Assembly (NCBI GenBank): GCA_947629235.1
Contig: CANRCX010000001.1
Coordinates: forward strand, 46,374-110,373
Reading direction: 5' to 3'
DNA from: an uncultured Bacilli bacterium
Lineage (GTDB): Bacteria > Bacillota_I > Bacilli_A > RF39 > UBA660
Length of the DNA stretch: 64,000 nt
Part shown: positions 3,720-44,198 of the stretch, in pieces
Position numbering within the stretch: the first letter of the stretch is position 1
Layout of the letters: every line of letters starts with the position of its first letter
Position numbers and translations under genes: made by a program
Notes under the pieces: generated by a model
Databases searched by the model: none
What the model was told of the DNA's origin: nothing
The model's input: the letters and a program-made list of their open reading frames with translations, nothing else

Positions 3720-3779
3720 TTAGTATAAAATCGCTAAATTATCATAAAATTTAAAGAAAATGCTTTACAAATAAAAAAA

Positions 3780-3905
3780 AGTATTATATAATCAAATACG
3801 TTGAAGTGACCAAAGACAGTAAGTACAAAAATAAATCTTACCGAGGAAACGATGTATAATAAGATTATCACAAGTTTCCTTGTCATGAGGAAACTTTTAA
3901 TTTAT
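3780..3905 (+). promoter_or_regulatory. rplJ (L10) leader / attenuator-like structure
   Basis: The long 5' leader before rplJ contains mutually exclusive helices: AGGAAAC…GTTTCCT, and GTTTCCT-tgtcatg-AGGAAAC followed by TTTTAATTT. This is consistent with the L10(L12)4 autoregulatory leader described in Firmicutes. Confidence 0.4.
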
Positions 3906-3920
3906 ATGAAAGGAGACTAT

Positions 3921-4424
3921 ATGGCAAGTAAAGAAATTCTTAAACAAAAAGAAGCTACTGTTAAAGAAATAACTGATAAACTTGATAGTTCTAAGACATT
4001 CTTATTACTTAATTATCAAGGACTTACAGTTAGTGAAATAAGAGAGCTAAGACAAAGTTTAAGGGAAGTTAACTCTGATATAAAAGTTTATAAAAATACT
4101 CTTATGAATTTAGCACTTAAAAATAAGAATATTGAATTAACTGATTATATGCAAGGTCCTAATGCTTACTTATTTTCAGAAAGCATTATAGAACCAATTA
4201 AAGTAGTTAGCAAATTTGCAAAAGATCATCCTGCACTTGAAGTTAGAGTTGGATATATTGATAATGAAGTAGTTGATACAACAGTTATTAATAAATATGC
4301 AACAATACCAAGTATGGAAGGATTACTTACAATGTTTGCTGGTGGCTTAATGGAACATGTAAGAAACTTAAGTATAGGGTTAAATTTATATGCTGAAAAG
4401 TTAGAAGAAGGAGGAAATAACTAA
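3921..4424 (+). CDS. rplJ: 50S ribosomal protein L10
   Basis: MASKEILKQKEATVKEI… is a typical L10 N-terminus. An AGGAG RBS sits 7 nt upstream. The ORF-track start at 3852 is an in-frame 5' extension with no RBS. Confidence 0.85.
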   Translation: MASKEILKQKEATVKEITDKLDSSKTFLLLNYQGLTVSEIRELRQSLREVNSDIKVYKNTLMNLALKNKNIELTDYMQGPNAYLFSESIIEPIKVVSKFAKDHPALEVRVGYIDNEVVDTTVINKYATIPSMEGLLTMFAGGLMEHVRNLSIGLNLYAEKLEEGGNN

Positions 4425-4798
4425 TGGCTAAAATTGAAAACAAAGATATTATCGAAGCTTTAAAAGAAAAAACTATTCTTGAAGTTAAAGAATTAGTTGA
4501 TATGATGAAAGAAGAATTTGGTGTTGATCCATCTGCAGTTGCTGTTGCTGCTGCTCCTGCACAAGCAGAAGCAGAAGAAAGTGCTACAAGTGGAGTTAAA
4601 ACTGTAGTTCTAAAAGATGCTGGAGCTCAAAAATTACAAGTTATTAAAGTAATTAGAGAAGCTACTGGTCTTGGACTTAAAGAAGCTAAAGATATTGCTG
4701 ATGCTGGTGGAAATGTTAAAGAAGGAATTCCTGCTAGTGAAGCTGACGAATTAAAAGCTAAATTAGAAGAAGCTGGAGCTACTGTAGAACTAGCTTAA
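4424..4798 (+). CDS. rplL: 50S ribosomal protein L7/L12
   Basis: 124 aa with an Ala-rich hinge and a conserved C-terminal domain (…KVIKVIREATGLGLKEAKD…EAGATVEL). TAATG overlap with rplJ. Confidence 0.92.
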   Translation: MAKIENKDIIEALKEKTILEVKELVDMMKEEFGVDPSAVAVAAAPAQAEAEESATSGVKTVVLKDAGAQKLQVIKVIREATGLGLKEAKDIADAGGNVKEGIPASEADELKAKLEEAGATVELA

Positions 4799-4863
4799 TT
4801 TATAAGGCCTTTTATATAAGGTCTTTCTGTGTATTTAAACAACTAAAATAAAAAAGGAGAATT

Positions 4864-5457
4864 ATGAGTCATTATTTTGAAAATGATATGAACTTAAAAA
4901 GTGAAATTAGAGAGTTAAGTTATAAATATAATTCTTCTTTTTTCATGTTTTATAGTGATAATGGTGTATTTAGTAAAAAAGCAATTGATTATGGAAGTAA
5001 ACTACTTTTAGAAACATACTTAGATGTTGATAAAACAAGTAAAAAAGTATTAGATGTTGGTTGTGGATATGGACTAATTGGAATAGTAATCAGTATTATT
5101 AATAATTCATATGTTGATATGATTGATGTTAATAAAAGAGCTATACATCTAACAAACAGAAATATTAAAAGATATAAAGAATTTAAAGGAACCGCATTTA
5201 TTAGTGATGCTTATGAAAATGTGCATGATAAATATGATGTTATTATTACTAATCCACCAATTAGAGTAGGAAAAGTTAAATTATTAGAAATATTAGAAGG
5301 TGCCTTTGAACATTTAAATAAAGATGGATATTTATATTTTGTTATTAGAAAAGATCAAGGCGCATTATCAATTAAAAAGATATTAGAAGAAAAAAATGAA
5401 GTAGAAATTATAAATAGAGATAAAGGATATTTTATTTTAAGAGTAAAAAACTTGTAA
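4864..5457 (+). CDS. Class I SAM-dependent methyltransferase (YbxB/RsmC-like) between rplL and rpoB
   Basis: SAM-binding motif VLDVGCGYGLIG and an NPP(I/F) motif (ITNPPIR) typical of N2-G/N6-A methyltransferases. It occupies the same position as B. subtilis ybxB. Confidence 0.7.
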   Translation: MSHYFENDMNLKSEIRELSYKYNSSFFMFYSDNGVFSKKAIDYGSKLLLETYLDVDKTSKKVLDVGCGYGLIGIVISIINNSYVDMIDVNKRAIHLTNRNIKRYKEFKGTAFISDAYENVHDKYDVIITNPPIRVGKVKLLEILEGAFEHLNKDGYLYFVIRKDQGALSIKKILEEKNEVEIINRDKGYFILRVKNL

Positions 5458-5573
5458 AAATTGATAAAAAAAGATTGACTTACTAGAAAACATTGTGTTA
5501 AAATTTTATATTGCAGTACAGTTTTATTTTTTAAAATTTGCGTTCTTTAAAAATTTAGGATTGGGGTGAAATA

Positions 5574-8500
5574 GTGGCATACAAAACAGTTAAATTTGGT
5601 GACCATAGAGAAAGAAGAAGTTTCTCAACAAAGTATAGTACTTTAGAACTATCTAACTTATTAGAAGTTCAAAAGAGTTCATTTGACTTATTTTTAAAGG
5701 AAGGAATTAAGGAAGTATTTGATGATATTTTCCCAGTAGAGAGTTTTTCAGGTTCATTATCACTAGAATTTGGTGATTATTATTTTGATGAGCCAAAATA
5801 TTCTGTAAAAGAAAGTAGAGAAAGAAAAACTACTTATGCTGCACCTTTAAAAGTTAAGGCAAGATTATTTATTAATGAAACAGGAGAAGTAAAAGAACAA
5901 GAAGTATATTTAGGTGATATGCCTTTAATGACTGATACAGGATCATTTATTATTAATGGTGCTGAAAGAGTTATTAACTCTCAACTTGTTATGGGACCAT
6001 CTTGTTATTACAAAAATGAAGTAGATAAGAATGGTAGAAACATAATATCAAGTGAAGTTAGACCTAATAAAGGAACATGGCTAGAATATGAACTAGATGC
6101 AAGAGGTATTTTATATGTAAGAATTGATAGAACTAGAAAAGTTACAGTTACTACATTACTTCGTGCATTAGGCCTTTCAAGTGATGAAGAAATATTAGAA
6201 TTATTTGGTCAAGATGAATATTTAATTAATACTTTAGAAAAAGATTCTACTAAGAATACTGATGAAGCATTAATTGAAATATATGAAAAATTAAGACCAG
6301 GTGAACCAGCTACATTAGATTCAGCTAAAAACCAATTAATCGTAAGATTCTTTGATAAATTTAGATATGATTTAGGTAAAGTTGGTAGATATAAATTCAA
6401 TAAAAAACTTAATGTTTTAGATAGACTTGTAAATAATAAAATAGCACAAGATATAAAAATAGGAAAAGAAGTTATTGTTAAAAAAGGAACAGTAATTACA
6501 AAAGATATTCTTGAAACTATTAAACCTTATTTTAATGAAGGTTATGGTGTAAAAGAAGTTACTATAAATGAAGAACTTGATACATATAATAAAATTCAAG
6601 AAGTTTTAGTATATGCTAATGACGATTCAGGAAAAGTAATAAAAGTTATAGGTAATGATCAAACTATTGATACTAAGAGACTTACTATTTCAGATGTATA
6701 TGCATCTTTATCATATTATATTTGTTTATTATATGGTATTGGTAAATATGATGAAATAGATCACTTAGGAAATAGACGTGTAAGACAAGTAGGAGAACTT
6801 ATTCAAAATCAATTTAGAATAGGTGTTGCTCGTATGGAAAGACAAATTAGAGATAAGATGTCAACACAAGAAATTGATGCTGTTACTCCTAAATCATTAA
6901 TTAATATAAGACCAGTAACTGCTGCTTTAAAAGAATTCTTTGGTAGTAGCCAATTATCAAAATTCATGGATCAAATAAATCCATTATCAGAATTAAATGA
7001 TAAGAGAAGACTTAGTGCTCTTGGTCCTGGAGGACTTTCAAGAGATAGAGCAGGTATGGAAGTTCGTGATGTAAACCCATCACACTATGGTAGAATTTGT
7101 CCTATCGAAACTCCAGAAGGTCAAAACATTGGACTTATTACATCTCTTGCAAGCTATGCAAGAATAAATGAATATGGATTTATAATGACTCCATATAGAA
7201 AAGTAGTAAATTCTAGAATAACTGATGAAATAGTTTATATGACTGCTGATGAAGAAGAAGATTATTATATTAGTCAAGCTACTGTAGAAGCAGATAAAGA
7301 TGGAAACATTTTAGATGATACAGTACCAGTTAGGTATAATAAAGATAACTTAATTGTTACAAAAGATAAAGTAGATTATATAGATGTTTCTCCTTCACAA
7401 ATAGTTTCTGTTACAACAAGTATGATTCCTTTTATGGAACATGATGATGCTAATAGAACACTAATGGGAGCTAACATGCAACGTCAAGCAGTACCACTAA
7501 TGATTACAGAAGCTCCAATTGTTGGAACTGGTGTAGAAGCAGCAATAGCAAGAGACTCTGGTTGTTCAGTAGTATGTGATATTGATGGTGTTGTTGAATA
7601 TGTTGATGCTAAGAAGATTATAGTAAAAGGTATAGATGAAAAGAGAACTTATGAACTTATAAGTTATCAAAGAAGTAATAATGAAACTTGTTATAATCAA
7701 AAACCAATTGTTAAAACTGGTGAAAAAGTACATAAAGGTGAAATTATTGCTGATGGACCTTCTACTGATAAAGGTGAAATAGCTTTAGGTAAAAATGTAG
7801 TTGTAGCATTTATGACTTATAATGGTTATAACTATGAAGATGCTGTTATTCTAAATGAAAGAATAGTTAAGGATGATGTGTATACTTCTGTACATATTGA
7901 AATGAAAGAAGTAGAATGTAGAGATACTAAATTAGGACCTGAAGAATTTACAAGAGATATTCCTAATATTAGTGAAGATGCACGTAAGAATTTAGATGAA
8001 AATGGTATCGTAAGAATAGGAACTGAAGTTAAAGAAAATGATATTCTTGTTGGTAAAGTTACTCCAAAAGGAATGCAAGAATTATCAAGTGAAGAAAAAT
8101 TATTACATGCAATTTTTGGTGAAAAGACAAGAGAAGTTAGAGATACTTCACTTAGAGTATCACATGGATGTTCAGGTATTGTACATGATGTACAAATATT
8201 TACTAAAGAAAATAGTGATGAACTTCCAGCTGGTGTATCAAAAGTTGTAAGAGTATATATAGTTAAGAAGAGAAAAATCCAAGTTGGAGACAAAATGGCT
8301 GGACGTCATGGTAACAAAGGTGTTTGTTCACTAATTTTACCAGAAGAAGATATGCCATATTTACCAGATGGTACTCCTGTTGATGTAATCTTAAATCCAT
8401 TAGGTGTTCCATCTCGTATGAACTTAGGACAAATCTTAGAGTTACACTTAGGTATGGCTGGTAAAAAATTAGGTGTTCACTATGCTACACCAATATTCAA

Positions 8501-9233
8501 TAGTGCAACTGAAGAAGATATCAAAGAAGAAACAGCTGCTGCTGGACTAGATCCTGATTATAAGACTTGGTTATATGATGGTCGTACAGGTGAAAGATTT
8601 GATAAGAGAGTATCAGTTGGTGTTATGTACATGATAAGACTTGTACATATGGTTGATGATAAAATCCATGCTCGTGCTACTGGACCTTATAGTTTAGTTA
8701 CACAACAACCACTTGGTGGTAAAGCTCAATTTGGTGGTCAAAGATTTGGAGAAATGGAAGTTTGGGCATTATATGCTTATGGTGCTGCTCATATCTTACA
8801 AGAAGTTATTACAATTAAATCAGATGATGTAGTTGGAAGAGTAAGAGTATATGAAGCACTTGTTAAAGGAAAACCAATCCCAGCACCAGGAGTTCCAGAA
8901 AGCTTTAGAGTATTAATTAAAGAATTCCAAGCTTTAGGACTTGATATTCAAATAATTAATAAAGATGGAAGCTTAAAAGATATTAAAGAACTTGAAATGG
9001 AAGAAGATAGAGAAGACGTGCCAGTTTCAATTGAAGAAGTTGGTAAACCTGAAGTAGAAGAAACTGAAGAAGATACAAGTGATTATGAAGATGTTCAAGA
9101 AGAAGACGATGAAGAAGATGAATTTGGTGATGACTTTGATGAAGCAGAGCCAACTGAAGAAGATCTTGAATATGAAGAAGAGTATGGACTTGATGATTAT
9201 AGTTTAGATGACTATGAAAGGGGTGAAGAATAA
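5574..9233 (+). CDS. rpoB: DNA-directed RNA polymerase subunit beta
   Basis: 1219 aa with conserved RpoB blocks, and an acidic C-terminal tail. GTG start follows a GGGGTGA RBS. Confidence 0.97.
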
Positions 9234-12200
9234 TGATGGAAGTTAACGATTTTGATGGAATTCGTATAGGAATCGCGTCTCCTGATAAAATTCGTGAATG
9301 GTCTTATGGAGAAGTTAAAAAACCAGAAACTATCAATTATAGAACACTAAACCCTGAAAGAGATGGACTTTTCTGTGAAAAGATATTCGGTCCAACAAAA
9401 GACTTTGAATGTGCTTGTAAAAAATATAAAAGACTTAGATATAAAAATGTAGTTTGTGATAGATGTGGTGTAGAAGTAACAAGAGCAAAGGTAAGAAGAG
9501 AAAGAATGGGACATATTGAACTTGCTAGTCCTGTAAGCCACATTTGGTATGCAAAAGGTGTACCTCCTAAAATTGGACTAGTTTTAGATATTAGTCCAAG
9601 AGAATTAGAAGAAGTATTATATTTCGTAAGTTATATAGTATTAGATCCAGGAATTGCACCTCTTGCTAAAAAACAAACCCTATCTGATAAAGAATACAGA
9701 GCTTATTATGAAAAATATGGTGATGGATTCAAAGTAGGTATGGGTGCTGAAGCAATTAAACAATTATTAACAGAAGTTGATCTTGATAAAGAAATAGAAG
9801 AACTTAAAAAAGAAGTAGAAAAATCACAAGGTCAAAAGAAATTAAGATTATTAAAGAGATTAGATTGCTTAAATGCATTTAAAGAAAGTGGTAACAGGCC
9901 AGAATGGATGATTCTTGATGTACTTCCTGTTATACCACCAGATTTAAGACCTATGATTCAACTTCCAGGTGGAAGATTTGCAACTAGTGATTTAAATGAT
10001 TTATATAGAAGAATTATTAATAGAAATAATCGTCTTAAAAAATTATTAGAATTAGAAGCACCTACAATTATTGTTCAAAATGAAAAACGTATGCTTCAAG
10101 AAGCAGTAGATGCATTAATTGATAATGGTAGACGTGGAAGAAGTGTATCAGGTGTAGGAAATAGACCTTTAAAATCACTATCTTCAATGTTAAAAGGAAA
10201 ACAAGGTAGATTTAGACAAAACTTATTAGGTAAGAGAGTTGACTATAGTGGTCGTTCTGTTATCGTAGTAGGTCCAAGTTTAAAAATGTATCAATGTGGT
10301 GTTCCAAAAGAAATGGCATTAGAACTATTTAAACCATATGTAATGCAACAATTAGTAGAAAGAGGTATTGCTCACAATATCAAAGCTGCTAAGAAGATTA
10401 TAGATGTTCAAGATGAAAGAGTATGGGATGTAGTTGAAGATGTAATAAGAGAACATCCAGTATTATTAAACCGTGCTCCAACATTACACAGACTTTCAAT
10501 TCAAGCATTTGAACCTGTATTAGTTGGTGGAAAAGCACTTAGATTACACCCATTAGTTTGTGGTGGATTCAATGCAGACTTCGATGGTGACCAAATGGCT
10601 ATTCACATTCCAATTAGTGAAGAAGCTCAAGCAGAAGCAAGACTTCTAATGTTAGGTGCTAATAACATTTTAGACCCTAAAGATGGAAAACCAATCGTTA
10701 CACCTTCACAAGATATGGTTTTAGGTAACTATTATTTAACACTAGAACTTCCAGGTGAAGAAAATGAAGGTAAAGCATATAAAGATGCAAATGAAGCTTT
10801 AATGGCTTATGAAAGAAGAGATATAACACTTCATACAAGAATTTGTATTCCTGCAAAAGAATTCAAACATAAAGTATGGACTGATGAACAAAAAGAAAAA
10901 TATTTAGTAACTACTGCTGGAAAATTAATATTCAATGAAATATTCCCAGATACATATCCTTATATTAATGAAGGAAGTAAAGAGAATATTGAATTTATGA
11001 CACCAGATAAATTCTTTATCGAAAGAGGTAAAAATTTAAGAGAAGAAGTTGCTAAAATGCCTGTAGTTCCTGCTTTAGTTAAAAAAGATTTAGGAAAAAT
11101 AATAGCTCAAATATTTAAGAGATATAAAACTACAGAAACTTCTATATTCTTAGATAAATTAAAAGATTTAGGATTTAAATATAGTACTAAATCAGGTATT
11201 ACATTCTCACTTAGTGATATACCTGTAAATGCTGAAAAGCAAACTATTATTGATGAAACTAATGCAACAATAGATAAAATTAATAAACAATTTAAGCGTG
11301 GTCTTATAACTGATGAAGAAAGACATAATAAAGTAATTAAGTTATGGACTGATGCTACTAATACTGTTCAAGGTAAACTTGGAGATATATTAAAAGAAGA
11401 TGTTGAAAATCCACTTTCAATGATCATAAACTCTGGAGCCAGAGGTTCTGCTAACCAATTAGGACAACTTGCTGGTATGAGAGGTATTATGGCTAAACCA
11501 GATGGTGGACAAGTAGAAATCCCAATTCTAGCTTCATTCCGTGAAGGATTAGACGTTCAAGAATTCTTCTTATCAACACACGGTTCTAGAAAAGGTACAG
11601 CAGATACTGCATTAAAGACAGCAGATGCTGGATATTTAACAAGAAGACTTGTTGATGTTGTACAAGATATTATTGTAAAAGAAGAAGATTGTGGAACTAT
11701 TCAAGGTATTGAAGTAGAAGCATTCACAGATGAAAAGAGTGGTGCTGTAATTGAATCATTTAGAGATAGAATAGTAGGAAGATATTCAAATCAAAAATTA
11801 TTACACCCAGAAACAAAAGAAGTATTAATTGATAAAGGTGCATTAATTACTGAAAGAATAGCTGATAAAATTGTTGATGCTGGTATTACTAAAATGGAAA
11901 TCAGAAGTGTACTTACATGTAGATGTCCAAATGGTATTTGCCAAAAATGTTACGGTATTAACTTAGCTACTGGTAACTTAGTAGAAGTTGGTGAAGCAAC
12001 TGGTATTATGGCTGCTCAATCAATCGGTGAACCAGGTACTCAGTTAACAATGCGTACATTCCACACTGGTGGTGTTGCATCAGCTGCTGATATTACTCAA
12101 GGTCTTCCAAGAGTTGAAGAGTTATTTGAAGCAAGAATACCAAAAGCTAAAGCAACAATTGCTGAAATTGATGGTAAAATTACAAAAATCACAGATGATA

Positions 12201-12910
12201 AAAATAATAGATTTAAAATCTATATTACTAATGATGTTGAAACTCGTGAACATGTAACACAATATAATGCTAAACTTAAAGTTGAAAAAGGTGAACAAGT
12301 AGTTGCAGGACAAGCATTAACTGAAGGAAGTGTTAGTCCAAAAGAATTACTTGCTGTAACTGACCCAACAACTGTACAAGAATATATCTTAAAAGAAATT
12401 CAAAAAGTTTATAAATCTCAAGGTGTTGATGTTAATGATAAACATGTTGAAACAGTTATTAGAAGAATGATTACTAAGATTAAAGTTGTAGATCCAGGAG
12501 ATACAAACTTAATTGAAGGATTAAGTGTTCCATTAAGAGAATTTGCTGAAATTAATAAACCAGTAATCTTAAATGGTGGTGTACCTGCTACAGGAAAACC
12601 TGTAATGCTTGGTATTACAAAAGCATCATTAGAAACAGATTCATTCTTATCAGCTGCATCATTCCAAGAAACAACAAGAATCTTAACAGATGCTGCTACT
12701 CGTGGTAAAGTAGATATGTTAAATGGTTTAAAAGAAAATGTTATTCTTGGTAAATTAATTCCTGCTGGTACTGGAGCAAAACAATATAATAATATTGAAG
12801 TTATGCTAAAAAATGAACTTTTAGATGACGATGCTGCTGAAGTACTAGAAGAAAAATTCTTAACAGATGATAAAAATGAAGAAGTAGTTGAAGGTGCTTT
12901 AGAAAGCTAA
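9233..12910 (+). CDS. rpoC: DNA-directed RNA polymerase subunit beta'
   Basis: 1225 aa with a zinc-binding CxxC…CxxC N-terminus, NADFDGD catalytic motif, and trigger-loop/bridge-helix regions. Start overlaps the rpoB stop. Confidence 0.97.
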
Positions 12911-13009: not shown

Positions 13010-13486
13010 ATGAAAGATAAAAATTTTATAATAGGAATAGTTATTTCAGTATTATTAGTAATTATAATTGCATTATTAGTTTTTATATTTTTACCATCTA
13101 AATTTGAAAATTCAAAAGAAGCAGAAAATAATATTAATCAAACAGAAAATAAGGTGAAAGATGATATTAATAATTCAATAGAAAAGAGATCATTTGTACA
13201 ATCTGCACAAAAATTATATCAGATTGCACAAACTGCTTTTATTAATGATGCTATGAATAATAAAGAATTTTATCCTTGCTATGATGGAAGTAATAATCAT
13301 AATTTATTTCTATCTGATAATACACTTAGGTATTATGTAGAATTTGATATGTCTGGAAATATAATTAATTTTCAATTATCTAATAATTCATATAATATCA
13401 ATAAAAGTGGAACAGAAATTAAAATTGAAGAACTAAATGATGCTAATGATGGTAAAATAGATAGTATGAAAGTTTGTATTGATTAA
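13010..13486 (+). CDS. Hypothetical membrane-anchored protein
   Basis: 158 aa. N-terminal hydrophobic helix (IIGIVISVLLVIIIALLVFIFL) then a soluble domain. No recognisable family. Good RBS (AAGAAGGGAA). Confidence 0.5.
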   Translation: MKDKNFIIGIVISVLLVIIIALLVFIFLPSKFENSKEAENNINQTENKVKDDINNSIEKRSFVQSAQKLYQIAQTAFINDAMNNKEFYPCYDGSNNHNLFLSDNTLRYYVEFDMSGNIINFQLSNNSYNINKSGTEIKIEELNDANDGKIDSMKVCID

Positions 13487-13626
13487 AGTATAAAGTATTA
13501 ATTTTTATTAATACTTTTTTAATGAAATAATAATTAAAAATTATAAATGATAAGATAGTTTATTACTATTTTTTCCTTGACTTTTAATATATATATATAT
13601 AATTTAATAAGCGAGGTTGGTATATA

Positions 13627-16600
13627 GTGAATAAAAATTTAGAAAATATCTTTTCTTATATTGCTGATGTATTAAAAGTTAATGATAGAAGTATTTATGA
13701 TTATAAAAACTATGACGTTTTAATAGAATTAAATGATTTTATAGAGAAATATAAAGATTTTTCAAACGATATAGATGTAGATTCTATAAATATATTAAAA
13801 GATTCAAATATTTTGACATTAAAATATAAAAAAGAAGAAAACTATTTAAAAAAATATCCTATTATAAATGAAAAACTTAAAAATTATATTTCATTAGACA
13901 ATCACAATGAAATTGTAATTAGTGAAGAAAGTTATGCTTTATTAAAAGAAAATAATTTATTAGCTGAATATAACAATTATTTATTAGAATATAATAATGT
14001 AAAAAAGAATAATGATTATATAAATAATTATAATAAAATATATAAAGAATTATACAATTTAAATAAAAGAATAAAAGATAATGAAGAGAAAATTGAAATA
14101 ATATTAGCAACAAATTTATTATATTGGAAAAATGATACAGGAGATATAATAAAAAGACATATTTTAGAATGTAATTTAGACTTAGAAGTGGATTCAATTC
14201 GTGATGTTATAACTCTTAGTATAAGTAATGATAAATTTAAAGGTTTTGTAAGTGATTTTTTAAATGAAAAAAATTATTCAGTTAAATCTAAAAGTGAATT
14301 AGATGATTTAATTAATGAGCAAAATTCATTAATTAAATCTGGAGATATTAGTATTGATAAATTAAATGATAAAATTAGTGAATATATTAACTACATTTCT
14401 TACAATCATTCTATTAAAGATACATATTTTAATGAAAAAGAAATAGAAAATAATATAACATATTTATTTAAAGATAAAACAATATTTTTTAGAAAGAAAA
14501 CATTAAGATTATGGATTGATGATGCACTTGCAATAGCAAATTATTGTAAAGAGAATGAAGTTGATAGCAATATTTTAAAAATGCTTGATATAGATTTTTC
14601 AAATGAAGAAGAAGTAAGAGATGCATTATATGATAGAAGCAATGATATAAATGAAGAAGTATTATTTCCTTTAAGTTCTAATGCAGAACAATATGACATA
14701 GTAGAAAAAATAAATAGAAATAATATTGTTTTAGTTCAAGGCCCACCTGGCACTGGTAAATCTCATACAATAGCAAATTTATTATCACACTATATAGCAC
14801 AAGGTAAAAAAGTAATAGTTACTAGTGAAAAGTCTAAGGCATTAGAAGTATTAAGAGATAAAATTCCAATCTCAATTAGAAGCCTTAGTTTATCTTTATT
14901 GTCAACAAAAGGTATAGATAAAGATTTAGAATTCTCTATAAATAATATTTTAAGTAAACAAAGAGATGAAAAAACTTTAAAAAATAATCTTATAAATATA
15001 AAATTATTAGAAAAAGAGTTAGAAAAAATAAAAGAATGTAAAGGACAAAATCAAAAAGATATAATTGAAATTATGTCTAAAGATGCGATTGATTATAAAG
15101 ATAAATTAATTGGACTTATTGATATTAAATCAGATAGTAAATTTAATTTACAAAATATTGCAAAGTATTTAGAAGATAATAAAAAATATAAATTTATTAA
15201 AGAGAACGATATTGAAAATTATGATTATAAAAATATAGATGAAATGCTTGAAAATCTTGATGATATTAGAGATGAAATAAGAAACAATAATTATGCATTA
15301 TCAACTGAAATTCCAATTAATAACTTACTTCAAGATAATCAAATAGAACTAAGTATTAAAGAAGGGATTAGATATGAAGATTATACTATAAAAAATGAAT
15401 CATTAAAGAGTTCTATTATAGAATCAAAGCTTAATAGTGAAATAATAAATGAACTTACAAATAAAATAAATAATTTAAATAATTTATATGAATTTTTTCC
15501 TAAAAAATGGTTAATTGATAAATTAGATTGGAAAGTATTTTTTGATAATATAGAAAAATTAAAAAAAGAAATTATATCAAAAGAAAAATTAATATATGAT
15601 GTTGAATCAAATAGATTTGATTATAATCTTGATTATGATAGTAACAATTTAGAATATTACCATAATATTATTTTTAATATAACTTCTTTATATAATGATA
15701 AAAAAATTCTTCCTTTAATTAATAAAATAAAATTATCTAATTATTTAAATAAACTTAGTAATTTTAAATTAAACGATGATTATTTAACAAAAAATCTTTC
15801 TTTTGAAGTATTTGAAAATATAGAAAATCAATTAGAATATAAACTTTTCATAAACAATATACAAAATAAGTTAAGTAAAGTATTAGAAAAAGATATTATT
15901 AGTATATTAAATATAAATGAATTTGAATTTGGAAAATATGAAAAAAGAATTATTAATATATTAGATGAAATAATTAATTATAATAAATCTATTAAAGATA
16001 TAGATAATAATTTATCAAAAGTTATAAATACTAAATTATTTAATATATCATATATAGATTCTCTTGAAGAATTTATTTTATCTGTAATTGATGATTTGAA
16101 TTATTATATTACTATAAATTCTAATACATCTAATCAACAAGAGTTTTCAAATGAATTAAGAGATTTTTATAAAGATTATAAATTACAAAATTTAAATGAA
16201 TTAATATTATCTATAGAAAATAAGGATTTAGACGAATATAAAATTAATAAAGAAAAATTATTAAGTGAGATTAATATTATTAATAAATATAATAATATAA
16301 GAAAGAAATATTCTTTAATATTTAGTGATAAACCATTATTTATAAAAAGTTATATATATGATTATGATAATGTAGAAAAATCTTTTGTAAAGGATAATAT
16401 TAAAGAAATATTAAAATATCATTATGTAGAAAAAATTTATCTTTCATTAGAAAAGAAACAGAATGTAAAAAAATTATATGATATAAGAAATGGATTAATT
16501 CAAAAAGAAAAACAAGTCATTGAAGAATTGATTAGTGAAAAAGGATGGTACTATCAAAATAAACAAATGACTCCTTTAATTAGTTCATCACTAAGTAAAT

Positions 16601-18456
16601 GGATGTCATTAAAGAAAAAATTAGGAAGTGGTACTGGAAAAACTGCATATAAAATTTTAAATGAAATGCAAAAAGAAATGCAAATAGCAAAGAATGCAAT
16701 TCCAGTATGGATTATGCCACTTGATAAATTAATAGAGCAATATCCATATAGTGAAAATCCACCATTTGATGTATTAATAATGGATGAAAGTTCTCAATCA
16801 TCTATATTTTCTATTAGTGCTTTAACTAGAGCAAAGAAAATAATAATTGTTGGAGATGATAAACAAATAAGTCCAACTAGCAGTTTTACAAGTGTTGATG
16901 ATGTAGAAGATTTAAAAAATAAATATTTAAAAAATAATCAATGGAAAGAACAATTATCTAAAGATACAAGTATATATGATTTTATAGGTATGATTTGTAA
17001 TAATAGTAAAGTTGTATTATCAGAGCATTTTAGATGTTTAAGAGAAATAATTGAATTTTCAAATAGATATTATTATAATGGTCAAATAAATCCATTAAAA
17101 GTAAGAAGCAAAGAAAATACAATTGATAAACCAATTATGACAATATATGTAGATGGAAGGGTTAAAAAATATGGAAATCAACCTTATAATGAAAAAGAAT
17201 TAGAAAAAGTAATAGAACTATTAAGAAATATTTCTAATGATGAAAAATATAATAATAAAACAATTGGTATAATTACTCTTCAAAGAAGTGATAAGTTTGT
17301 TCTAAAATTAATAGAAAAAATATGGAGTACATTCGGAGATAAATTTGCAACTGATAGACATATTAAAGTAGGAGATACCGCTAGTTTTCAAGGTGATGAA
17401 AGAGATGTTATTATACTTTGTATGTTAAATGCTAGTGTAGATGAAAATGGCGATAGTAATATAATTAGAGCACTTACTACACCAGAATATGAACGTATTT
17501 ATAATGTAGCAGCATCAAGAGCTAAAGAACAAATGATTTTAATACATTCATTAACATTAGAAGAATTAAGAGAAAATTGTTGTAGATATAAACTATTAAA
17601 TTATTGTTTAAATTATGATAAAGAAGAAGAAAAACAAATAGAAGAAAAATTTGAATCTAATTTTGAAAGAGAAGTTTATAAAGATTTAACAGCAAAAGGA
17701 TTAAAATTAATTCCACAATTTAAAGTTGGTAATTATAGAATTGATTTTATAATAAAGAATGATAATGATCAAAACATAGCTCTTGAATGTGATGGAGATA
17801 GATACCATAATGTTGATAATCTTAAAGCTGATTTAGAAAGACAATCAGTATTAGAAAGATGTGGTTGGAAATTTATTAGAGTAAGAGCAAGTGAGTATTT
17901 TTATGATAGAGAAAAAAGCATTAACAGAATTTTAGAAGAAGTAAATAATATTTTAGATAGAAATTATTCAACTTCTAATATTAATTATGATGTAAGCGAT
18001 ATAATAAAATTTGATAAAGAAGAAGCATTAAAAGAAGTAAAAGAAGAACTAGAAAAAAATGAAACTAAGGAAATAAAAAAAGAAGAAAAACATCAAGATA
18101 AACCATTAAATATAAAAAGTAATTCTAATTTAGAGAGTGATATATTAAATTATATGTCAGAAGAAAATAAATCAAATATTGATTTAGAAAAGAAAATATT
18201 TAATGAAGATGGTATTACTAAAAATAGTTATAGATTTTTAACTTTATATTGTGAAGGAGTTAGTATAGAAGATATATCAAAATATTATGTATCATCTATT
18301 GGAGAAGTTAAAAGAATATTAAATTTATCATTATTAGTTTATAAAAAAGACACTTTAGAAGAAGCAGCAAAAATCTTTAAAGAAAAATTTAAAGGTAGTC
18401 AAAAATATAATAATATATATGATAATTATAAAAAATATAAGAAAAATAATTTGTAA
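13627..18456 (+). CDS. Large Upf1-like SF1 helicase fused to a C-terminal DUF559/Vsr-like (restriction-endonuclease fold) domain; candidate defence helicase-nuclease
   Basis: 1609 aa. AAA_11 start (SSNAEQYDIVEKI…VLVQGPPGTGKSHTIANL Walker A), then a ~600-aa insert, Walker B VLIMDESSQSS, IVGDDKQISP, AAA_12 motifs (EHFRCLREIIEFSNRYYYNGQI; VGDTASFQGDERDVIILCM). C-terminal …VGNYRIDFIIKNDNDQNIALECDGDRYH…LERCGWKFIRVRASEYF matches the DUF559/REase_MTES_1575 pattern. The N-terminal ~350 aa are unassigned (possibly DUF4011-like). Confidence 0.8.
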   Translation: MNKNLENIFSYIADVLKVNDRSIYDYKNYDVLIELNDFIEKYKDFSNDIDVDSINILKDSNILTLKYKKEENYLKKYPIINEKLKNYISLDNHNEIVISEESYALLKENNLLAEYNNYLLEYNNVKKNNDYINNYNKIYKELYNLNKRIKDNEEKIEIILATNLLYWKNDTGDIIKRHILECNLDLEVDSIRDVITLSISNDKFKGFVSDFLNEKNYSVKSKSELDDLINEQNSLIKSGDISIDKLNDKISEYINYISYNHSIKDTYFNEKEIENNITYLFKDKTIFFRKKTLRLWIDDALAIANYCKENEVDSNILKMLDIDFSNEEEVRDALYDRSNDINEEVLFPLSSNAEQYDIVEKINRNNIVLVQGPPGTGKSHTIANLLSHYIAQGKKVIVTSEKSKALEVLRDKIPISIRSLSLSLLSTKGIDKDLEFSINNILSKQRDEKTLKNNLINIKLLEKELEKIKECKGQNQKDIIEIMSKDAIDYKDKLIGLIDIKSDSKFNLQNIAKYLEDNKKYKFIKENDIENYDYKNIDEMLENLDDIRDEIRNNNYALSTEIPINNLLQDNQIELSIKEGIRYEDYTIKNESLKSSIIESKLNSEIINELTNKINNLNNLYEFFPKKWLIDKLDWKVFFDNIEKLKKEIISKEKLIYDVESNRFDYNLDYDSNNLEYYHNIIFNITSLYNDKKILPLINKIKLSNYLNKLSNFKLNDDYLTKNLSFEVFENIENQLEYKLFINNIQNKLSKVLEKDIISILNINEFEFGKYEKRIINILDEIINYNKSIKDIDNNLSKVINTKLFNISYIDSLEEFILSVIDDLNYYITINSNTSNQQEFSNELRDFYKDYKLQNLNELILSIENKDLDEYKINKEKLLSEINIINKYNNIRKKYSLIFSDKPLFIKSYIYDYDNVEKSFVKDNIKEILKYHYVEKIYLSLEKKQNVKKLYDIRNGLIQKEKQVIEELISEKGWYYQNKQMTPLISSSLSKWMSLKKKLGSGTGKTAYKILNEMQKEMQIAKNAIPVWIMPLDKLIEQYPYSENPPFDVLIMDESSQSSIFSISALTRAKKIIIVGDDKQISPTSSFTSVDDVEDLKNKYLKNNQWKEQLSKDTSIYDFIGMICNNSKVVLSEHFRCLREIIEFSNRYYYNGQINPLKVRSKENTIDKPIMTIYVDGRVKKYGNQPYNEKELEKVIELLRNISNDEKYNNKTIGIITLQRSDKFVLKLIEKIWSTFGDKFATDRHIKVGDTASFQGDERDVIILCMLNASVDENGDSNIIRALTTPEYERIYNVAASRAKEQMILIHSLTLEELRENCCRYKLLNYCLNYDKEEEKQIEEKFESNFEREVYKDLTAKGLKLIPQFKVGNYRIDFIIKNDNDQNIALECDGDRYHNVDNLKADLERQSVLERCGWKFIRVRASEYFYDREKSINRILEEVNNILDRNYSTSNINYDVSDIIKFDKEEALKEVKEELEKNETKEIKKEEKHQDKPLNIKSNSNLESDILNYMSEENKSNIDLEKKIFNEDGITKNSYRFLTLYCEGVSIEDISKYYVSSIGEVKRILNLSLLVYKKDTLEEAAKIFKEKFKGSQKYNNIYDNYKKYKKNNL

Positions 18457-18459
18457 AAG

Positions 18460-18492
18460 AATTATAGCAAAAATGCTATAATTTTTTTTAAT
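18460..18492 (+). terminator. Rho-independent terminator after the helicase-nuclease gene
   Basis: AATTATAGCA-aaaa-TGCTATAATT followed by TTTTTTTT. Confidence 0.7.
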
Positions 18493-23363: not shown

Positions 23364-23449
23364 ATTATTAATATTTGAATAGTAAATTTTGCTATTCATT
23401 TTTTGTTTTTTATGATATACTTAATTATGATAAGATAGTAGGTGGATAT

Positions 23450-23695
23450 ATGTTAAATAATAAAGTTTTAGTAAATTTATATTGTTTATCATTAGGTAAA
23501 ACTTTTGAAGTATATTTGCCTATAAATGAAAAAATAGGAAATATAACAAAAATATTAAATACAACATTATTTGATTCAATTGATTCATCTAGAAATTATA
23601 TGTTTTTGAATTCAGAAACTGGAAATATATATAAAAATAATGAATTGATAAGAGAAACAGATATAAAAAATGGAACAAAAATAATATTAATGTAA
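23450..23695 (+). CDS. esaB: Type VII secretion ubiquitin-like protein YukD/EsaB
   Basis: ~81 aa from ATG 23450 (AGGTGG RBS 6 nt upstream). Beta-grasp-like pattern ending …ETDIKNGTKIILM, as in YukD (…ITNGDRLEIM). Sits directly upstream of essC. Confidence 0.6.
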   Translation: MLNNKVLVNLYCLSLGKTFEVYLPINEKIGNITKILNTTLFDSIDSSRNYMFLNSETGNIYKNNELIRETDIKNGTKIILM

Positions 23696-23715
23696 GAATA
23701 AAGGGTTAGTGTGTT

Positions 23716-26700
23716 ATGAATATATATCTATTTGATGAAAATTCTATTATTACATTTTGTTTACCAAGTAAAAAAATTGGTAATTTTTGGCTTACAGATA
23801 ATGAAAATAAAAATATAGTAAATATAAAAAATGAAGATAATGATTGGATTATTAGTGGAAGCGAAAATACTAAGGTTATATTAGGAAATAATGAACAAAA
23901 AGCTATTTTAAAATCTAAAAATTATTATGCAGTTGAAAAAAATGATAAGAAATATCCTATATTTGTATATGATTCAAATGACAATACATTCAATCCATAT
24001 ATTTTTCCTGAAAATAAAACAATTAAAGTTGGTAGGATAGATGAAAATGATGTAATTGTTAATATTCCATATTTCCAAAAATTACATTTTTGTTTATCTT
24101 TAGAAAAAGGATACTATAAAATTGAAAAAATGCCTGAATCAATTATGTACTTAAATGATGAAATAATAAAAAATGATATAACCTATGCTAAAACTGGTGA
24201 TGTAATAAATGTATATGGAATAAAGTTTGTTCTTGCACACAATTTAATATTTATAAATAATCCCATTGATAGAGTATGTGTAAAAGATATTTTAGAAAAA
24301 ACATCATTTTCTGTTGATGATGAAATAACTAGTGAAGAAATAATTAATGAAGATTTATATAGTGATAAAGATTATTTTTTAAGAAGCCCAAGACTTAGAA
24401 AAATAATTGAAACATTTAAGTTAAATATTGATTCTCCACCAACAAAAGAAAATATGCAACAAATTCCATTAATTATGACTTTAGCACCAATGATTACTAT
24501 GGCAGCAAGTTCAATGGTAACTCTTTCAAATGCAATACAAACTGTAACATCTGGTGAAAAAACATGGAAACAAAATGCACCAACTTTAGTAATTTGTATT
24601 TCAATGTTATTAAGTATGCTTGTATGGCCTTTTGTAACTAGAATATATGAGCAAAAACAAAAAGAAAAAAGGGAGAATGAAAGACAAGAAAAATATAAAT
24701 CATATTTATCAAATAAAAAAGATGAATTATCAGTGGAATATAATATGCAAAAAAGAATATTAGAAGAAAATTTACTTTCTACTGATATTTGTTATGATAT
24801 GATATTAAATAAAAGAAGAACACTTTGGGAAAGAAAAATAGAAGAAAGTGACTTTTTAACAGTTAGACTTGGTAAAGGTGAAATACCATTTGATGCTGAT
24901 ATATCATATAGAAGTGAAGACTTTACAATGGATGATGATAATTTAAAAAAGATGCTTGATGAATTAATAAAGTCATATAAAACATTAACAGATGTTCCAA
25001 TAGGATACTCTTTTTCTTCTAATAAATATACAGCTGTGAGTGGACTTAATCCTAAATATGTATATTTTGTAAATAATTTATTATTACAGATGATGGCATT
25101 TCATAGCTATGATAATTTAAAATTTGTAATATTTACAAATAAAAAAAATCAAAAAAGATGGAAACATTTTAAAGACTCTCCATATTGTTTTTCTGATGAT
25201 AAATATTATAGATTTTTTGCTACTAATACAGAAGAAATGCAAGAAGTATCAAATTATTTGAAACAAATATTCAATAATAGACAAACTTTATCAAATAATG
25301 GTAGTGAAAATGAAAGAATAAATAATTTTTCTAAATTTAATACATATTATTTATTTATTATTGATGATATAGATTTAGCTAGAAAAATAGATATTGTTGA
25401 TAGTGTTTTAGATGAAAAAAAGAATTTAGGTTTTAGCATTTTAGTTATAGAAGAAAGACTATCTAAATTACCAAGTCAAATAACTAAATTTATAAATATT
25501 GGTGATAAAACATCTGTTGTTATTAACAGTGAAAATAATGATCAAATTAGATTCAATGATGAACTTAAAAATTATAATATGGATTTAGTAACAAATACAC
25601 TTATGAATTTACCATTATATATTGATAATAATATAAAACAATTGCCTAATTCAATAACATTCTTGGAGTTATTCAGTGTAGGTCAAATTGATCAATTAAA
25701 TATTCTTAATAGATGGAAAGATAATGATCCTACTAAGTCGTTAAAAGCTGAAATAGGCGTTAATGAAAATAATGATATATTTGTGTTAGATTTACATGAA
25801 AAAGCACATGGTCCACATGGACTTATTGCTGGTATGACTGGTAGTGGTAAATCAGAGTTTATAATTACTTATATACTTTCTATGGCAATTAATTATAGTC
25901 CAGAAGAAGTCGCTTTTGTATTAATTGATTATAAGGGTGGTGGTCTTGCTGGTGCTTTTGTTAATAATGAAACAAAAGAAAAATTACCACATGTAGTAGG
26001 AACAATTACAAATTTAGATAAAGCAGAAATAAATAGAGCTCTTTCAAGTATTCAAAGTGAGCTTAGAAGAAGACAAACTAAATTTAATGAAGTAAGGGAT
26101 AAATTTGGTGAAAGTACAATTGATATATACAAATATCAAAAATTATATAGAGATGGTATGATTAAGGAAGCTATTCCACATTTAATTATAGTTTGTGATG
26201 AATTTGCAGAATTAAAAGATCAACAACCAGATTTTATGGATGATTTAATTAGTACTGCTCGTATAGGTCGTTCACTTGGAGTACACTTGATTTTAGCAAC
26301 ACAAAAGCCAAGTGGAGTAGTAGATTCACAAATATGGTCTAACTCTAAGTTTAAAGTTTGTTTAAAAGTTCAAGATAAATCAGATAGTATGGAAATGATA
26401 AAGTGTGATTTGGCAGCCGAACTTAAAAATGTTGGTAGATTTTATTTACAAGTAGGATATAATGAATATTTTGCAATGGGTCAAGCTGCTTGGGCTGGAG
26501 CACAATATTATCCAAATAAGGAGTATAAAAAACCAGTCGATAAAAATATGTATTTTATAAATAATACAGGTGCTATAAAAAAAGCATTAAATAATAATTT
26601 TGCTAAAAAATTAGTAAAGTCAGAAGGAGAAGAACTTACATCTATTGTAAAATATGTAATAGATATAAGTAAAAATATTGATATAGATGTAAAACAATTA

Positions 26701-28305
26701 TGGTTAGATAGAATACCAAATAAAATATTGATTCAAGATTTATTTAACAAATATAATTATGCTAAAGAAAGATTTAATATAAATCCAATAATAGGTGAAT
26801 ATGATGATCCAGAGAATCAATTACAAGGATTACTAACTCTTCCTATAACAAGCGATGGTAATACTGTTTTATATGGAATTGCTGATAGTGGAAAAGATGA
26901 ATTTTTGTCTACTTTGGTTTATTCTATAATAATGACTTATGATACAAGTGAAGTTAATTTATATTTATTAGACTTTGGTGCTGAAACATTGATTAATTAT
27001 AGTGAAGCACCACAAGTTGGTGATGTAATATTAAATGGTAATGATGAAAAATTAGAAAATTTAGCTAAAATGTTAAATAATGAAATGAATAAAAGAAAAA
27101 AATTATTTATTTCATATAATGGAAATTATAGAGATTATATTAAAAATAGTGGGAAGACACTGCCTAATATCATTGTAATAATAAATTCTATTGAAGTACT
27201 TACTGATACTTATCAAGATTATATAGATAAATTAATACCTGTAGTAAGAGAAGGAAGTAAATACGGAATTAACTTTGTAGTAACAACAAGTAGTCAAAAT
27301 AATATTAAGTTTAAAATAGCACAAGCTTGTAAACAAATTTTAACTCTTCAATTAAACAATGAAAGTGACTATAGAGATTTGTTAGGAAAAACAAATGGGC
27401 TTATACCATCTTCATGTTTAGGAAGAGGACTTGTCAAATTAGATAGAGTATTAGAATTTCAAACAGCTTTTATAACTAATGATGAAAGTTCATTTGTTAA
27501 AATAAAAGAATTAATAAGTTTACTTAATGAAAAAGGTATTAATAAAGCAAGAGAAATACCAGTTATGCCAGATATTATTAAATTAGATAGATTTAAAGAT
27601 AAATATTTAGGTATAGATACAATACCAATTGGATTAACTAAAGAAACATTAGTATCAAGTTTATATGATTATTCTAAAAATGTTGTTAATATTATTTCTT
27701 CTAATGAAATGGAAAGTATGAGAGAATTTATATTAAATTATTTAAAACTTATTGAACAAAATAGTAATAAGTTTAATAGAGTAGTAATAGATGCATGTAA
27801 TTATTTTGAAAACTTTAATTATAATATAAATTTAATAAATGATAAATTTGATTCTGCAATTGATTCATTAAAGAAAATTGATGATAGTTTCCAACAAATA
27901 ATTGAGAAAAACAATATGAATTTAAGAAGTGTTAAAAATCAAATGAATAGTTTAATAATTATAATTGGATTTGATAAATTCTTAACTAGATTAGATGATG
28001 CTCATAAAGAAATGTTTAAAAATATTTTGAAAAATCAAAAAGAAATTTTAAAATTATCATTTGTATTAATTGATATACCATCTGCATTTAAAAAATATGA
28101 ATATGAAGAATGGTATAAAGATAGCATTACTGGAAACGATGGATTATGGATTGGAAATAATATTTCACAACAATTTGTTATCAAAACAACAATTCAACCA
28201 AATAGTATTAATAATATTGGAAATGGTTATGCAGTTTCAGTTAAAAATGGTATGCCAATTGTTATAAAATTAATAAATGAAATAAAAGTCAAAAAAAGAG
28301 AATAA
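23716..28305 (+). CDS. essC: Type VII secretion system ATPase EssC/YukB (FtsK/SpoIIIE family)
   Basis: 1529 aa. N-terminal FHA-like region. Two TM helices (~aa 250-300). First ATPase domain with HGPHGLIAGMTGSGKSE Walker A and LIIVCDEFAEL Walker B. Two further degenerate P-loop domains (GIADSGKDEF…). Confidence 0.85.
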   Translation: MNIYLFDENSIITFCLPSKKIGNFWLTDNENKNIVNIKNEDNDWIISGSENTKVILGNNEQKAILKSKNYYAVEKNDKKYPIFVYDSNDNTFNPYIFPENKTIKVGRIDENDVIVNIPYFQKLHFCLSLEKGYYKIEKMPESIMYLNDEIIKNDITYAKTGDVINVYGIKFVLAHNLIFINNPIDRVCVKDILEKTSFSVDDEITSEEIINEDLYSDKDYFLRSPRLRKIIETFKLNIDSPPTKENMQQIPLIMTLAPMITMAASSMVTLSNAIQTVTSGEKTWKQNAPTLVICISMLLSMLVWPFVTRIYEQKQKEKRENERQEKYKSYLSNKKDELSVEYNMQKRILEENLLSTDICYDMILNKRRTLWERKIEESDFLTVRLGKGEIPFDADISYRSEDFTMDDDNLKKMLDELIKSYKTLTDVPIGYSFSSNKYTAVSGLNPKYVYFVNNLLLQMMAFHSYDNLKFVIFTNKKNQKRWKHFKDSPYCFSDDKYYRFFATNTEEMQEVSNYLKQIFNNRQTLSNNGSENERINNFSKFNTYYLFIIDDIDLARKIDIVDSVLDEKKNLGFSILVIEERLSKLPSQITKFINIGDKTSVVINSENNDQIRFNDELKNYNMDLVTNTLMNLPLYIDNNIKQLPNSITFLELFSVGQIDQLNILNRWKDNDPTKSLKAEIGVNENNDIFVLDLHEKAHGPHGLIAGMTGSGKSEFIITYILSMAINYSPEEVAFVLIDYKGGGLAGAFVNNETKEKLPHVVGTITNLDKAEINRALSSIQSELRRRQTKFNEVRDKFGESTIDIYKYQKLYRDGMIKEAIPHLIIVCDEFAELKDQQPDFMDDLISTARIGRSLGVHLILATQKPSGVVDSQIWSNSKFKVCLKVQDKSDSMEMIKCDLAAELKNVGRFYLQVGYNEYFAMGQAAWAGAQYYPNKEYKKPVDKNMYFINNTGAIKKALNNNFAKKLVKSEGEELTSIVKYVIDISKNIDIDVKQLWLDRIPNKILIQDLFNKYNYAKERFNINPIIGEYDDPENQLQGLLTLPITSDGNTVLYGIADSGKDEFLSTLVYSIIMTYDTSEVNLYLLDFGAETLINYSEAPQVGDVILNGNDEKLENLAKMLNNEMNKRKKLFISYNGNYRDYIKNSGKTLPNIIVIINSIEVLTDTYQDYIDKLIPVVREGSKYGINFVVTTSSQNNIKFKIAQACKQILTLQLNNESDYRDLLGKTNGLIPSSCLGRGLVKLDRVLEFQTAFITNDESSFVKIKELISLLNEKGINKAREIPVMPDIIKLDRFKDKYLGIDTIPIGLTKETLVSSLYDYSKNVVNIISSNEMESMREFILNYLKLIEQNSNKFNRVVIDACNYFENFNYNINLINDKFDSAIDSLKKIDDSFQQIIEKNNMNLRSVKNQMNSLIIIIGFDKFLTRLDDAHKEMFKNILKNQKEILKLSFVLIDIPSAFKKYEYEEWYKDSITGNDGLWIGNNISQQFVIKTTIQPNSINNIGNGYAVSVKNGMPIVIKLINEIKVKKRE

Positions 28306-28425
28306 ATTTATTTAAAAAACTACAATTTTTTACAAATAAGTTTTATTCTTTTTGCTGATTAAATTAAAATTACTTTACAATAAAAACCAAATATTGTAAA
28401 CTTATTATAGGAGGTAAAATGATAT

Positions 28426-29043: not shown

Positions 29044-29048
29044 TAATA

Positions 29049-29072
29049 AGAAGCAATTTTGCTTCTTATTTC
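29049..29072 (+). terminator. Weak terminator-like hairpin
   Basis: AAGAAGCA-attt-TGCTTCTT followed by ATTTCC (short U-tract). Confidence 0.35.
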
Positions 29073-29124
29073 CTAAGTTGAATAGTATATATTCTATTTA
29101 GGAAATAAGAAGGAGAGTGATATT

Positions 29125-29568: not shown

Positions 29569-29589
29569 AAAAAATAAATAGGAGTTAAT

Positions 29590-37206: not shown

Positions 37207-37207
37207 T

Positions 37208-37711: not shown

Positions 37712-37730
37712 TATTAGGAGGATTTTAAAT

Positions 37731-37946: not shown

Positions 37947-37947
37947 T

Positions 37948-44192: not shown

Positions 44193-44198
44193 TTAGAC

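Follow-up and report, generated by a model that had tools for sequence, protein, structure and literature searches.

Nhi, type II Mokosh and Hachiman couple a helicase to a nuclease for defence. Type II Mokosh has a PLD nuclease in its MkoC protein. Hachiman consists of two proteins, belongs to superfamily 2 (SF2) and is described in the literature as the HamAB complex. In the DUF4011 anti-phage protein Hhe (NCBIfam NF042953), a single polypeptide holds an N-terminal domain, a Walker A motif, a very large insert, a Walker B motif with the second RecA domain (RecA2), an MTES_1575 nuclease and a tail. Two further families share such a core, namely the NCBIfam family NF058533, 'anti-phage protein ProA', and the PADLOC family PDC-S37. 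PDC systems are 145 untested phage defence candidates that were defined by their embedding in BREX, DISARM, type I restriction-modification (RM) or Hma systems (bioRxiv 10.1101/2024.01.29.577857). Here we describe a gene for a related protein in a 64,000-nucleotide stretch of DNA, hereafter the window, from an uncultured Bacilli bacterium (RF39; UBA660; assembly GCA_947629235.1, contig CANRCX010000001.1, positions 46,374 to 110,373 of the forward strand). Judged from its sequence, the protein is an Upf1-like superfamily 1B (SF1B) helicase fused to a Vsr/DUF559-fold nuclease. It is probably a stand-alone accessory defence protein directed against phages or other mobile DNA, a putative ATP-driven, single-polypeptide helicase-nuclease of the Hhe/ProA/PDC-S37 superfamily. 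It does not appear to represent a new class of system, but a branch, so far uncharacterised, within a class of single-gene anti-phage proteins that is already known.

The gene is a 4.8-kb open reading frame (ORF) in DNA of 19.5% G+C, which cannot be attributed to chance. Its G+C content compares with 24.6% for the whole window. All long ORFs of the window are intact with genetic code 11, and genetic code 4 is not needed. The gene, the parts of its product and its likely expression signals are as follows.

13577..13603, plus strand: promoter-like element read from the sequence, putative (TTGACT at 13577-13582, a spacer of 15 nucleotides, TATAAT at 13598-13603)
13613-13616, plus strand: ribosome-binding site GAGG, 10 nucleotides before the GTG start codon at 13627-13629
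13627..18456, plus strand: helicase-nuclease ORF, 1609 residues, GTG start
13627..14661, plus strand: N-terminal domain, residues 1-345, alpha/beta, with a long helix at residues 112-150 and beta-sheets at residues 156-207 and 278-290
14662..14919, plus strand: first part of RecA domain 1 (RecA1), residues 346-431, with Walker A GPPGTGKS at residues 372-379 (nucleotides 14740-14763) and motif Ia, VTSEKSKALEVL, at residues 398-409
14920..16698, plus strand: all-helical insertion of about 590 residues between motifs Ia and II, residues 432-1024, from an AlphaFold2 (AF2) model
16699..17616, plus strand: rest of RecA1 and RecA2, residues 1025-1330
17662..17946, plus strand: Vsr-like PD-(D/E)xK nuclease domain (MTES_1575/DUF559, from Pfam), residues 1346-1440
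17947..18456, plus strand: variable C-terminal tail, residues 1441-1609, with the stop codon; a charged linker is followed by a helix-turn-helix (HTH)-like module at residues ~1534-1565
18455..18492, plus strand: likely intrinsic terminator of the gene, an A+T-rich hairpin with a U-run, from folding

The complete set of SF1B motifs (I, Ia, II, III, V and VI) is present. Walker A lies within GPPGTGKSHT (residues 372-381), Walker B is DESSQ (1053-1057) within DESSQSS (1053-1059), and motif III is VGDDKQ (1075-1080); QGDERD (1255-1260), within QGDERDVII (1255-1263), and VAASRAK (1294-1300) lie further on. The nuclease domain carries YRIDF (1370-1374), ECDGDRYH (1387-1394) and CGWKFIRVR (1412-1420). 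The initial annotation of this DNA, made from the letters and their translations, had reported the same ORF with its helicase and nuclease motifs, and all of them are found in the protein, although Walker B follows Walker A at a distance of 675 residues and not of about 600. Its reading of the protein as an SF1B helicase fused to a DUF559/Vsr-fold nuclease is borne out by Pfam matches above the cut-offs. These are AAA_11 on residues 351-546 (48 bits against a cut-off of 27), a region that also matches AAA_30, AAA_12 on residues 1125-1306 (E = 2.7e-17, 63.4 bits against 27), and MTES_1575 on residues 1346-1438 (E = 8.7e-29, 99.9 bits against 38.2). DUF559 gives a weaker match (E = 5.3e-7). The first 350 or so residues had been left unassigned, and Pfam likewise has nothing on residues 1-345. 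DUF4011 and DUF3320, for which a scan with hidden Markov models (HMMs) had been suggested, are both absent from the protein at E <= 0.1.

Conservation and modelling show the motor and the nuclease to be intact. In an alignment of 29 full-length homologs with 27-83% identity to the window protein, every helicase motif is invariant. The nuclease residues D1373, D1389, D1391, Q1406 and R1411 are invariant in the same homologs, and E1387 and H1394 are also conserved. Sets of 29-68 homologs show the domains and motifs to be intact and without variation. An AF2 model of the core (residues 340-1445; predicted local distance difference test score, pLDDT, of 84.9) contains two RecA domains and an insert made of helices only. 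The position of the insert, between motifs Ia and II, is the place of domains 1B and 1C in Upf1-like helicases. The modelled two-RecA fold superposes on solved Upf1-like helicases, the closest of which are SETX/Sen1, UPF1 and DNA2. When the nuclease domain alone was compared with the PDB by sequence, nothing meaningful was returned, and its fold match comes from the structure model only. A P-loop-like LGSGTGK loop (GxGxGK; residues 999-1005, window positions 16621-16641) is present outside the canonical helicase motifs. It closes the helical insert, directly ahead of the remainder of RecA1, and its residues G1000, G1002, G1004 and K1005 are invariant.

The best named family is ProA (E = 6.3e-69), which aligns residues 308-1492 with profile positions 607-1754 of 1903. 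The alignment takes in Walker A, the insert and RecA2 and continues through the nuclease and about 50 residues past it, and all 29 homologs match the profile, with a best E-value of 1.2e-80. About 600 N-terminal and 150 C-terminal profile positions never align in the window protein. Five proteins of 1814-1905 residues with the same N-terminal domain score 180-239 bits on ProA, and the N-terminal region of ProA is likewise unmatched in them. The PDC-S37 model gives E = 1.6e-66 and aligns residues 344-1502 with profile positions 287-1390 of 1550. Profile and protein are alike in total length and share the core, and the PDC-S37 profile, like that of ProA, aligns through the helical insert. The match takes in 71% of the PDC-S37 profile and 72% of the window protein, but both ends are unaligned, with 286 N-terminal and 160 C-terminal profile positions left over. 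None of the 29 homologs is a close PDC-S37 member, because the best E-value is only 4e-80. The matches that follow ProA and PDC-S37 are Hhe, MkoC (4.9e-38) and MkoA (8e-27), all confined to the C-terminal part; those to MkoC and MkoA fall on the SF1B RecA2 region (residues ~1045-1343). The MkoC model aligns with residues 1047-1343 only, and the window protein has no PLD domain in Pfam. The Nhi and HamB models gave no PADLOC match at E <= 0.1.

A BLASTP comparison with a bona fide Hhe from a Klebsiella plasmid showed 37% identity over residues 336-413, at Walker A, and 24% over residues 1047-1442, at RecA2 and the nuclease, and no other part aligned. The window protein has the order of parts of Hhe given above, but it differs from Hhe in having neither DUF4011 nor DUF3320, and its tail instead has a weak DUF6115 match and the HTH-like module. 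Homology between its N-terminal domain and that of Hhe was considered and rejected (hhalign probability 0.1%). The initial annotation had regarded the nuclease fold and domain order as unlike those of known systems, and the architecture as one of undefined function. This view has to be given up, as Hhe has the same domain order and nuclease family, and ProA and PDC-S37 are the best matches over helicase, insert and nuclease. Since the window protein has the Hhe/ProA layout yet scores below the membership cut-offs of both families, it appears to form a separate branch with an N-terminal domain of its own. The eukaryotic Upf1-like SF1B helicases UPF1, SETX/Sen1, IGHMBP2, ZNFX1 and DNA2 all lack this N-terminal domain, the 590-residue helical insert and the Vsr-like nuclease, and their biological roles are unrelated; the nuclease of DNA2 is a different domain and is N-terminal. 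A literature search on anti-phage ProA turned up only proline biosynthesis or the F' proA marker, and nothing was found under the name PDC-S37. Hhe goes unmentioned in the 2021 PADLOC paper.

The embedding in a known defence system that characterizes PDC systems is absent from the window locus, but it is seen for the homologs in loci L084, L086, L096 and L098. The homolog of L084 (49% identity) has a type I RM system directly downstream and a PLD-helicase/DUF3427 pair upstream. In L086 (46%), GmrSD and type I RM genes lie upstream. On Acinetobacter plasmids (L096, L098), a distant relative of 1576 residues lies directly 3' of the BREX gene brxL, and on a Sphingobium plasmid (L097) a relative follows a BPTD_3080 restriction enzyme. 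The homolog of L088 (38%), which belongs to a sister subfamily, is part of a cassette at 1255-10921 that consists of a Schlafen/AlbA_2-HATPase_c_4 gene, the helicase gene, a DUF4236/FtsK_gamma gene, an AAA ATPase gene and a 237-residue ORF. The gaps in this cassette are 7-35 bp. The observation extends to L089, and parts of the cassette are found again in L002 and L052. The cassette could represent a multi-gene form of the system. In L082 (47% identity), the stop codon of an upstream ADP-ribosylglycohydrolase gene overlaps the start of the helicase gene, and the other neighbours are housekeeping genes. The ADP-ribosylglycohydrolase gene lies at 9162-10001 in L082 and at 2921-3760 in L083 and ends exactly at the helicase gene start; the overlap of stop and start suggests a two-gene operon in this lineage. 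In a neighbourhood screen by crude tblastn of 80 loci (1.5 Mb in all) from species-representative genomes of many phyla, type I RM genes were found within 10 kb in six loci, BREX genes in one and Schlafen-like genes in four. As a rough estimate and not a computed one, six in 80 is well above the usual frequency of type I RM.

Relatives are spread over many bacterial phyla and extend to one archaeal metagenome-assembled genome. The plasmids that carry them number 567, of which 230 are conjugative, and a few contigs predicted to be viral or prophage also have them. A phage genome collection gave only three weak partial matches. This association with mobile elements would suit an exclusion or addiction module that acts mainly against plasmids or in competition between elements, not in phage defence, and nothing links this subfamily specifically to phage. 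Such a role is rather unlikely for the window gene, which is chromosomal with no mobile-element genes nearby; moreover, anti-phage activity is what the annotation gives for its nearest named relatives, Hhe and ProA.

The gene is not a fixed part of its locus. Eight related loci were compared, and since L090 and L091 carry the same RpoC protein, seven of them are distinct. Only L081 has the gene. Its RpoC is 98.9% identical to that of the window, and its rpoC is followed by the ortholog (81.6% identity), asnB, alr, an unknown gene and ffh. In L093, L094 and L099 (RpoC 93.9%), ffh follows rpoC after a spacer of about 50-60 bp, and these are empty sites. A 98-residue ORF and then ffh follow rpoC in L092 (RpoC 94.6%), and a type VII secretion locus follows it in L090, L091 and L100 (RpoC 94-95%). 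No helicase remnant was found by tblastn in any compared locus. The different contents after rpoC and the lack of remnants indicate that the post-rpoC interval is a variable spot that holds the gene in a minority of relatives. There are only two helicase protein clusters above 51% identity, as opposed to more than 100 RpoC clusters at >=92% identity. The comparison of rpoC-ffh synteny proposed in the initial annotation therefore reveals presence and absence, with the gene in the window and L081 only. The helicase-nuclease gene is an accessory, strain-variable gene of an uncultured low-GC gut-type bacterium.

The two copies differ more than their neighbours do at the protein level. Compared with 81.6% for the helicase-nuclease, the identity between the window and L081 is 95.4% for Ffh. 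The ratio of nonsynonymous to synonymous divergence (dN/dS) is 0.28 for the helicase gene, 0.03 for rpoC and 0.09 for ffh. By region, the motor and nuclease have values of 0.13-0.16, the N-terminal domain 0.24, the insert 0.34 and the tail 0.64. The gene is under moderate purifying selection, and the ortholog diverged in place.

This co-divergence with the flanks under purifying selection is also what a housekeeping enzyme of DNA repair, recombination or RNA surveillance would show, for example a Dna2-, Sen1- or Upf1-like factor for R-loops or stalled transcription. A position after rpoBC with housekeeping genes as neighbours fits such an enzyme, and so do the closest solved folds and the core status of a DUF4011 relative in Pseudomonas aeruginosa. 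We consider it unlikely, however, in view of the absence of the gene from six of the seven related loci, where RpoC is still 94-95% identical and rpoC abuts ffh in three. The patchy occurrence across phyla and plasmids, the linkage of homologs to RM, BREX and GmrSD and a dN/dS 3-10 times that of the neighbours also speak against it. It is very improbable that the gene is a remnant, inactive or in decay and now without function, as its nearly neutral tail and very low G+C content might suggest, since the ORF is intact in two lineages diverged to a synonymous divergence (dS) of 0.34, the catalytic domains are constrained with all helicase and nuclease motifs invariant, and the promoter-like element, ribosome-binding site and start codon are conserved.

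A defence function is favoured by the best matches to defence families, the accessory presence, the homologs beside RM, GmrSD, Schlafen and BREX genes, and the patchy distribution over phyla and plasmids. Evolution that is fast relative to the neighbours yet constrained argues for it as well. Several points weigh against it. The dS of the helicase gene (0.335) matches that of ffh (0.314), which indicates a long-term resident and not a recent arrival. No tRNA, integrase or flanking repeat was found around the gene, the repeats there being A+T-rich chance ones, and no defence gene adjoins it at the window locus. The ProA score is 232.8 bits against an equivalog cut-off of 1500, the Hhe score is 121.9 bits against an equivalog cut-off of 2000 and covers the C-terminal third only, and PDC-S37 is itself a defence candidate only. 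The core status of the DUF4011 relative in P. aeruginosa means that some members of the superfamily may serve other ends than defence. Lastly, what triggers the enzyme, whether it acts on DNA or RNA and what the N-terminal domain, insert and tail do are all matters of inference. The idea of an inserted defence gene, put forward in the initial annotation, thus survives in the accessory nature of the gene, with its empty sites, and in the RM, GmrSD and BREX neighbours of homologs, but nothing marks a recent insertion. Base composition as a sign of recent transfer was rejected; the G+C content at third codon positions (GC3) is 7%, against 8-10% in neighbours, and the close homologs all come from genomes of 24-28% G+C.

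The N-terminal domain is modelled confidently and has no counterpart among solved structures. A profile of the domain searched against 1.84 billion representative proteins gave 291 matches at E <= 1e-3 (291 clusters at 50% identity). The domain is always N-terminal in these matches. Full-length matches have 1400-1900 residues, all five that were scanned carry the same helicase-nuclease core, and the short matches look like contig fragments. As a result, the domain appears to be confined to the helicase-nuclease architecture. It is proposed to be a sensor or regulatory module.

The C-terminal tail is absent in about half of the homologs. The DUF6115 match of the window tail (28 bits) is just over the cut-off of 27. 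Some homologs have tails with an HTH-like module and weak Sigma70_r4/GerE-like matches, others have a WYL domain in addition (24.8 bits; cut-off 21.8), and one has Sigma70_r1_1 (42.5 bits). Across proteins P0006, P0007, P0009, P0021 and P0040, the tails are modular, with either no tail, an HTH-like module, HTH and WYL, or Sigma70 region 1.1 and HTH. Such variation is typically seen where regulatory or sensor modules can be swapped.

For a defence protein of this kind, the following course of action may be proposed. The N-terminal domain, perhaps together with the helical insert, would hold the enzyme inactive until a cue from an invader arrives. Candidate cues are a phage protein or abnormal DNA, such as single-stranded DNA or a replication or recombination intermediate. 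The SF1B motor would then load and move 5' to 3' on a single strand, driven by ATP, and the Vsr-like nuclease would nick or cut the tracked DNA and thereby halt replication of the invader. The C-terminal HTH could anchor the protein on DNA or act as a repressor of the gene's own promoter, and the WYL domain of homologs could add control by a ligand. A tentative extension of this scheme is that the N-terminal domain is a previously undescribed sensor that gates the Upf1-like motor and the Vsr-like nuclease and defines a widespread, mechanistically distinct defence family. Some of its members would also be gated by a C-terminal HTH or WYL, and the family would respond to a trigger unlike those of Hhe and ProA.

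If the protein is defensive, it adds a fairly widespread, multi-phylum branch, including plasmid-borne relatives, to the single-gene helicase-nucleases of the Hhe/ProA type. A defence gene could then sit alone between core operons in small-genome uncultured Bacilli, and methods based on defence islands would miss such genes. Handles on how these enzymes are triggered would be the N-terminal domain and the tails, which are interchangeable (none, HTH, HTH with WYL, or sigma region 1.1-like).

The helicase gene seems to be expressed from its own signals. A promoter-like element with a spacer of 16 nucleotides, the GAGG in an identical arrangement and the GTG start are kept upstream of the L081 ortholog. 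The element of the window was not listed by the promoter scanner, because the scanner needs a spacer of 16-18 nucleotides. In L081, the spacer after the ortholog and ahead of asnB (12069-12430) contains a second promoter-like element, TTGACT...TATATAATTT, that resembles the element of the helicase gene. It may be a strong promoter typical of the lineage or a trace of rearrangement. Folding predicts a hairpin with a U-run after the helicase gene (-13.1 kcal/mol, z -5.1, with none of 200 shuffles as stable), after rpoC (-13.6 kcal/mol, z -6.1) and after a 158-residue ORF between the two genes (-8.0 kcal/mol, z -2.5). A consensus terminator scan based on G+C found no terminators, because these hairpins are A+T-rich. 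The gene order upstream is rplJ, rplL, a methyltransferase gene, rpoB and rpoC, and ffh lies downstream. The gene had been described as standing alone and flanked by terminators between two operons; the hairpins with U-runs and the flanking rpoBC and ffh agree with this, but the 158-residue ORF intervenes. The other features of the window are as follows.

3792-3909, plus strand: ribosomal L10 leader (Rfam, 48.3 bits), upstream of rplJ
13010-13486, plus strand: 158-residue ORF, membrane-anchored at the N-terminus, which follows rpoC and precedes the helicase gene; it has a promoter-like site and a hairpin terminator of its own
23375-38910, plus strand: type VII secretion-like locus
44198-44383, plus strand: T-box leader (Rfam, 94.8 bits), upstream of an 800-residue ORF at 44770-47172

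The 158-residue ORF has no Pfam match and is weakly similar (25% identity) to N_methyl (prepilin-type) proteins encoded upstream of rplJ in L093 and L094. It was rejected as a partner gene, as it is missing from L081 and a terminator-like hairpin separates it from the helicase gene. The type VII secretion-like locus encodes a 106-residue ORF, an EssC-like FtsK/SpoIIIE ATPase (1529 residues), a 205-residue protein with a WXG100-like end, a 147-residue ORF, a 2538-residue protein without a Pfam match and an ADP-ribosylglycohydrolase (37864-38910). The 2538-residue protein and the ADP-ribosylglycohydrolase may form a toxin-immunity pair. In L090 and L100, the type VII secretion locus is directly 3' of rpoC, and this region is therefore rearranged between strains. 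The T-box and L10 leaders are the sole Rfam matches in the 64-kb window.

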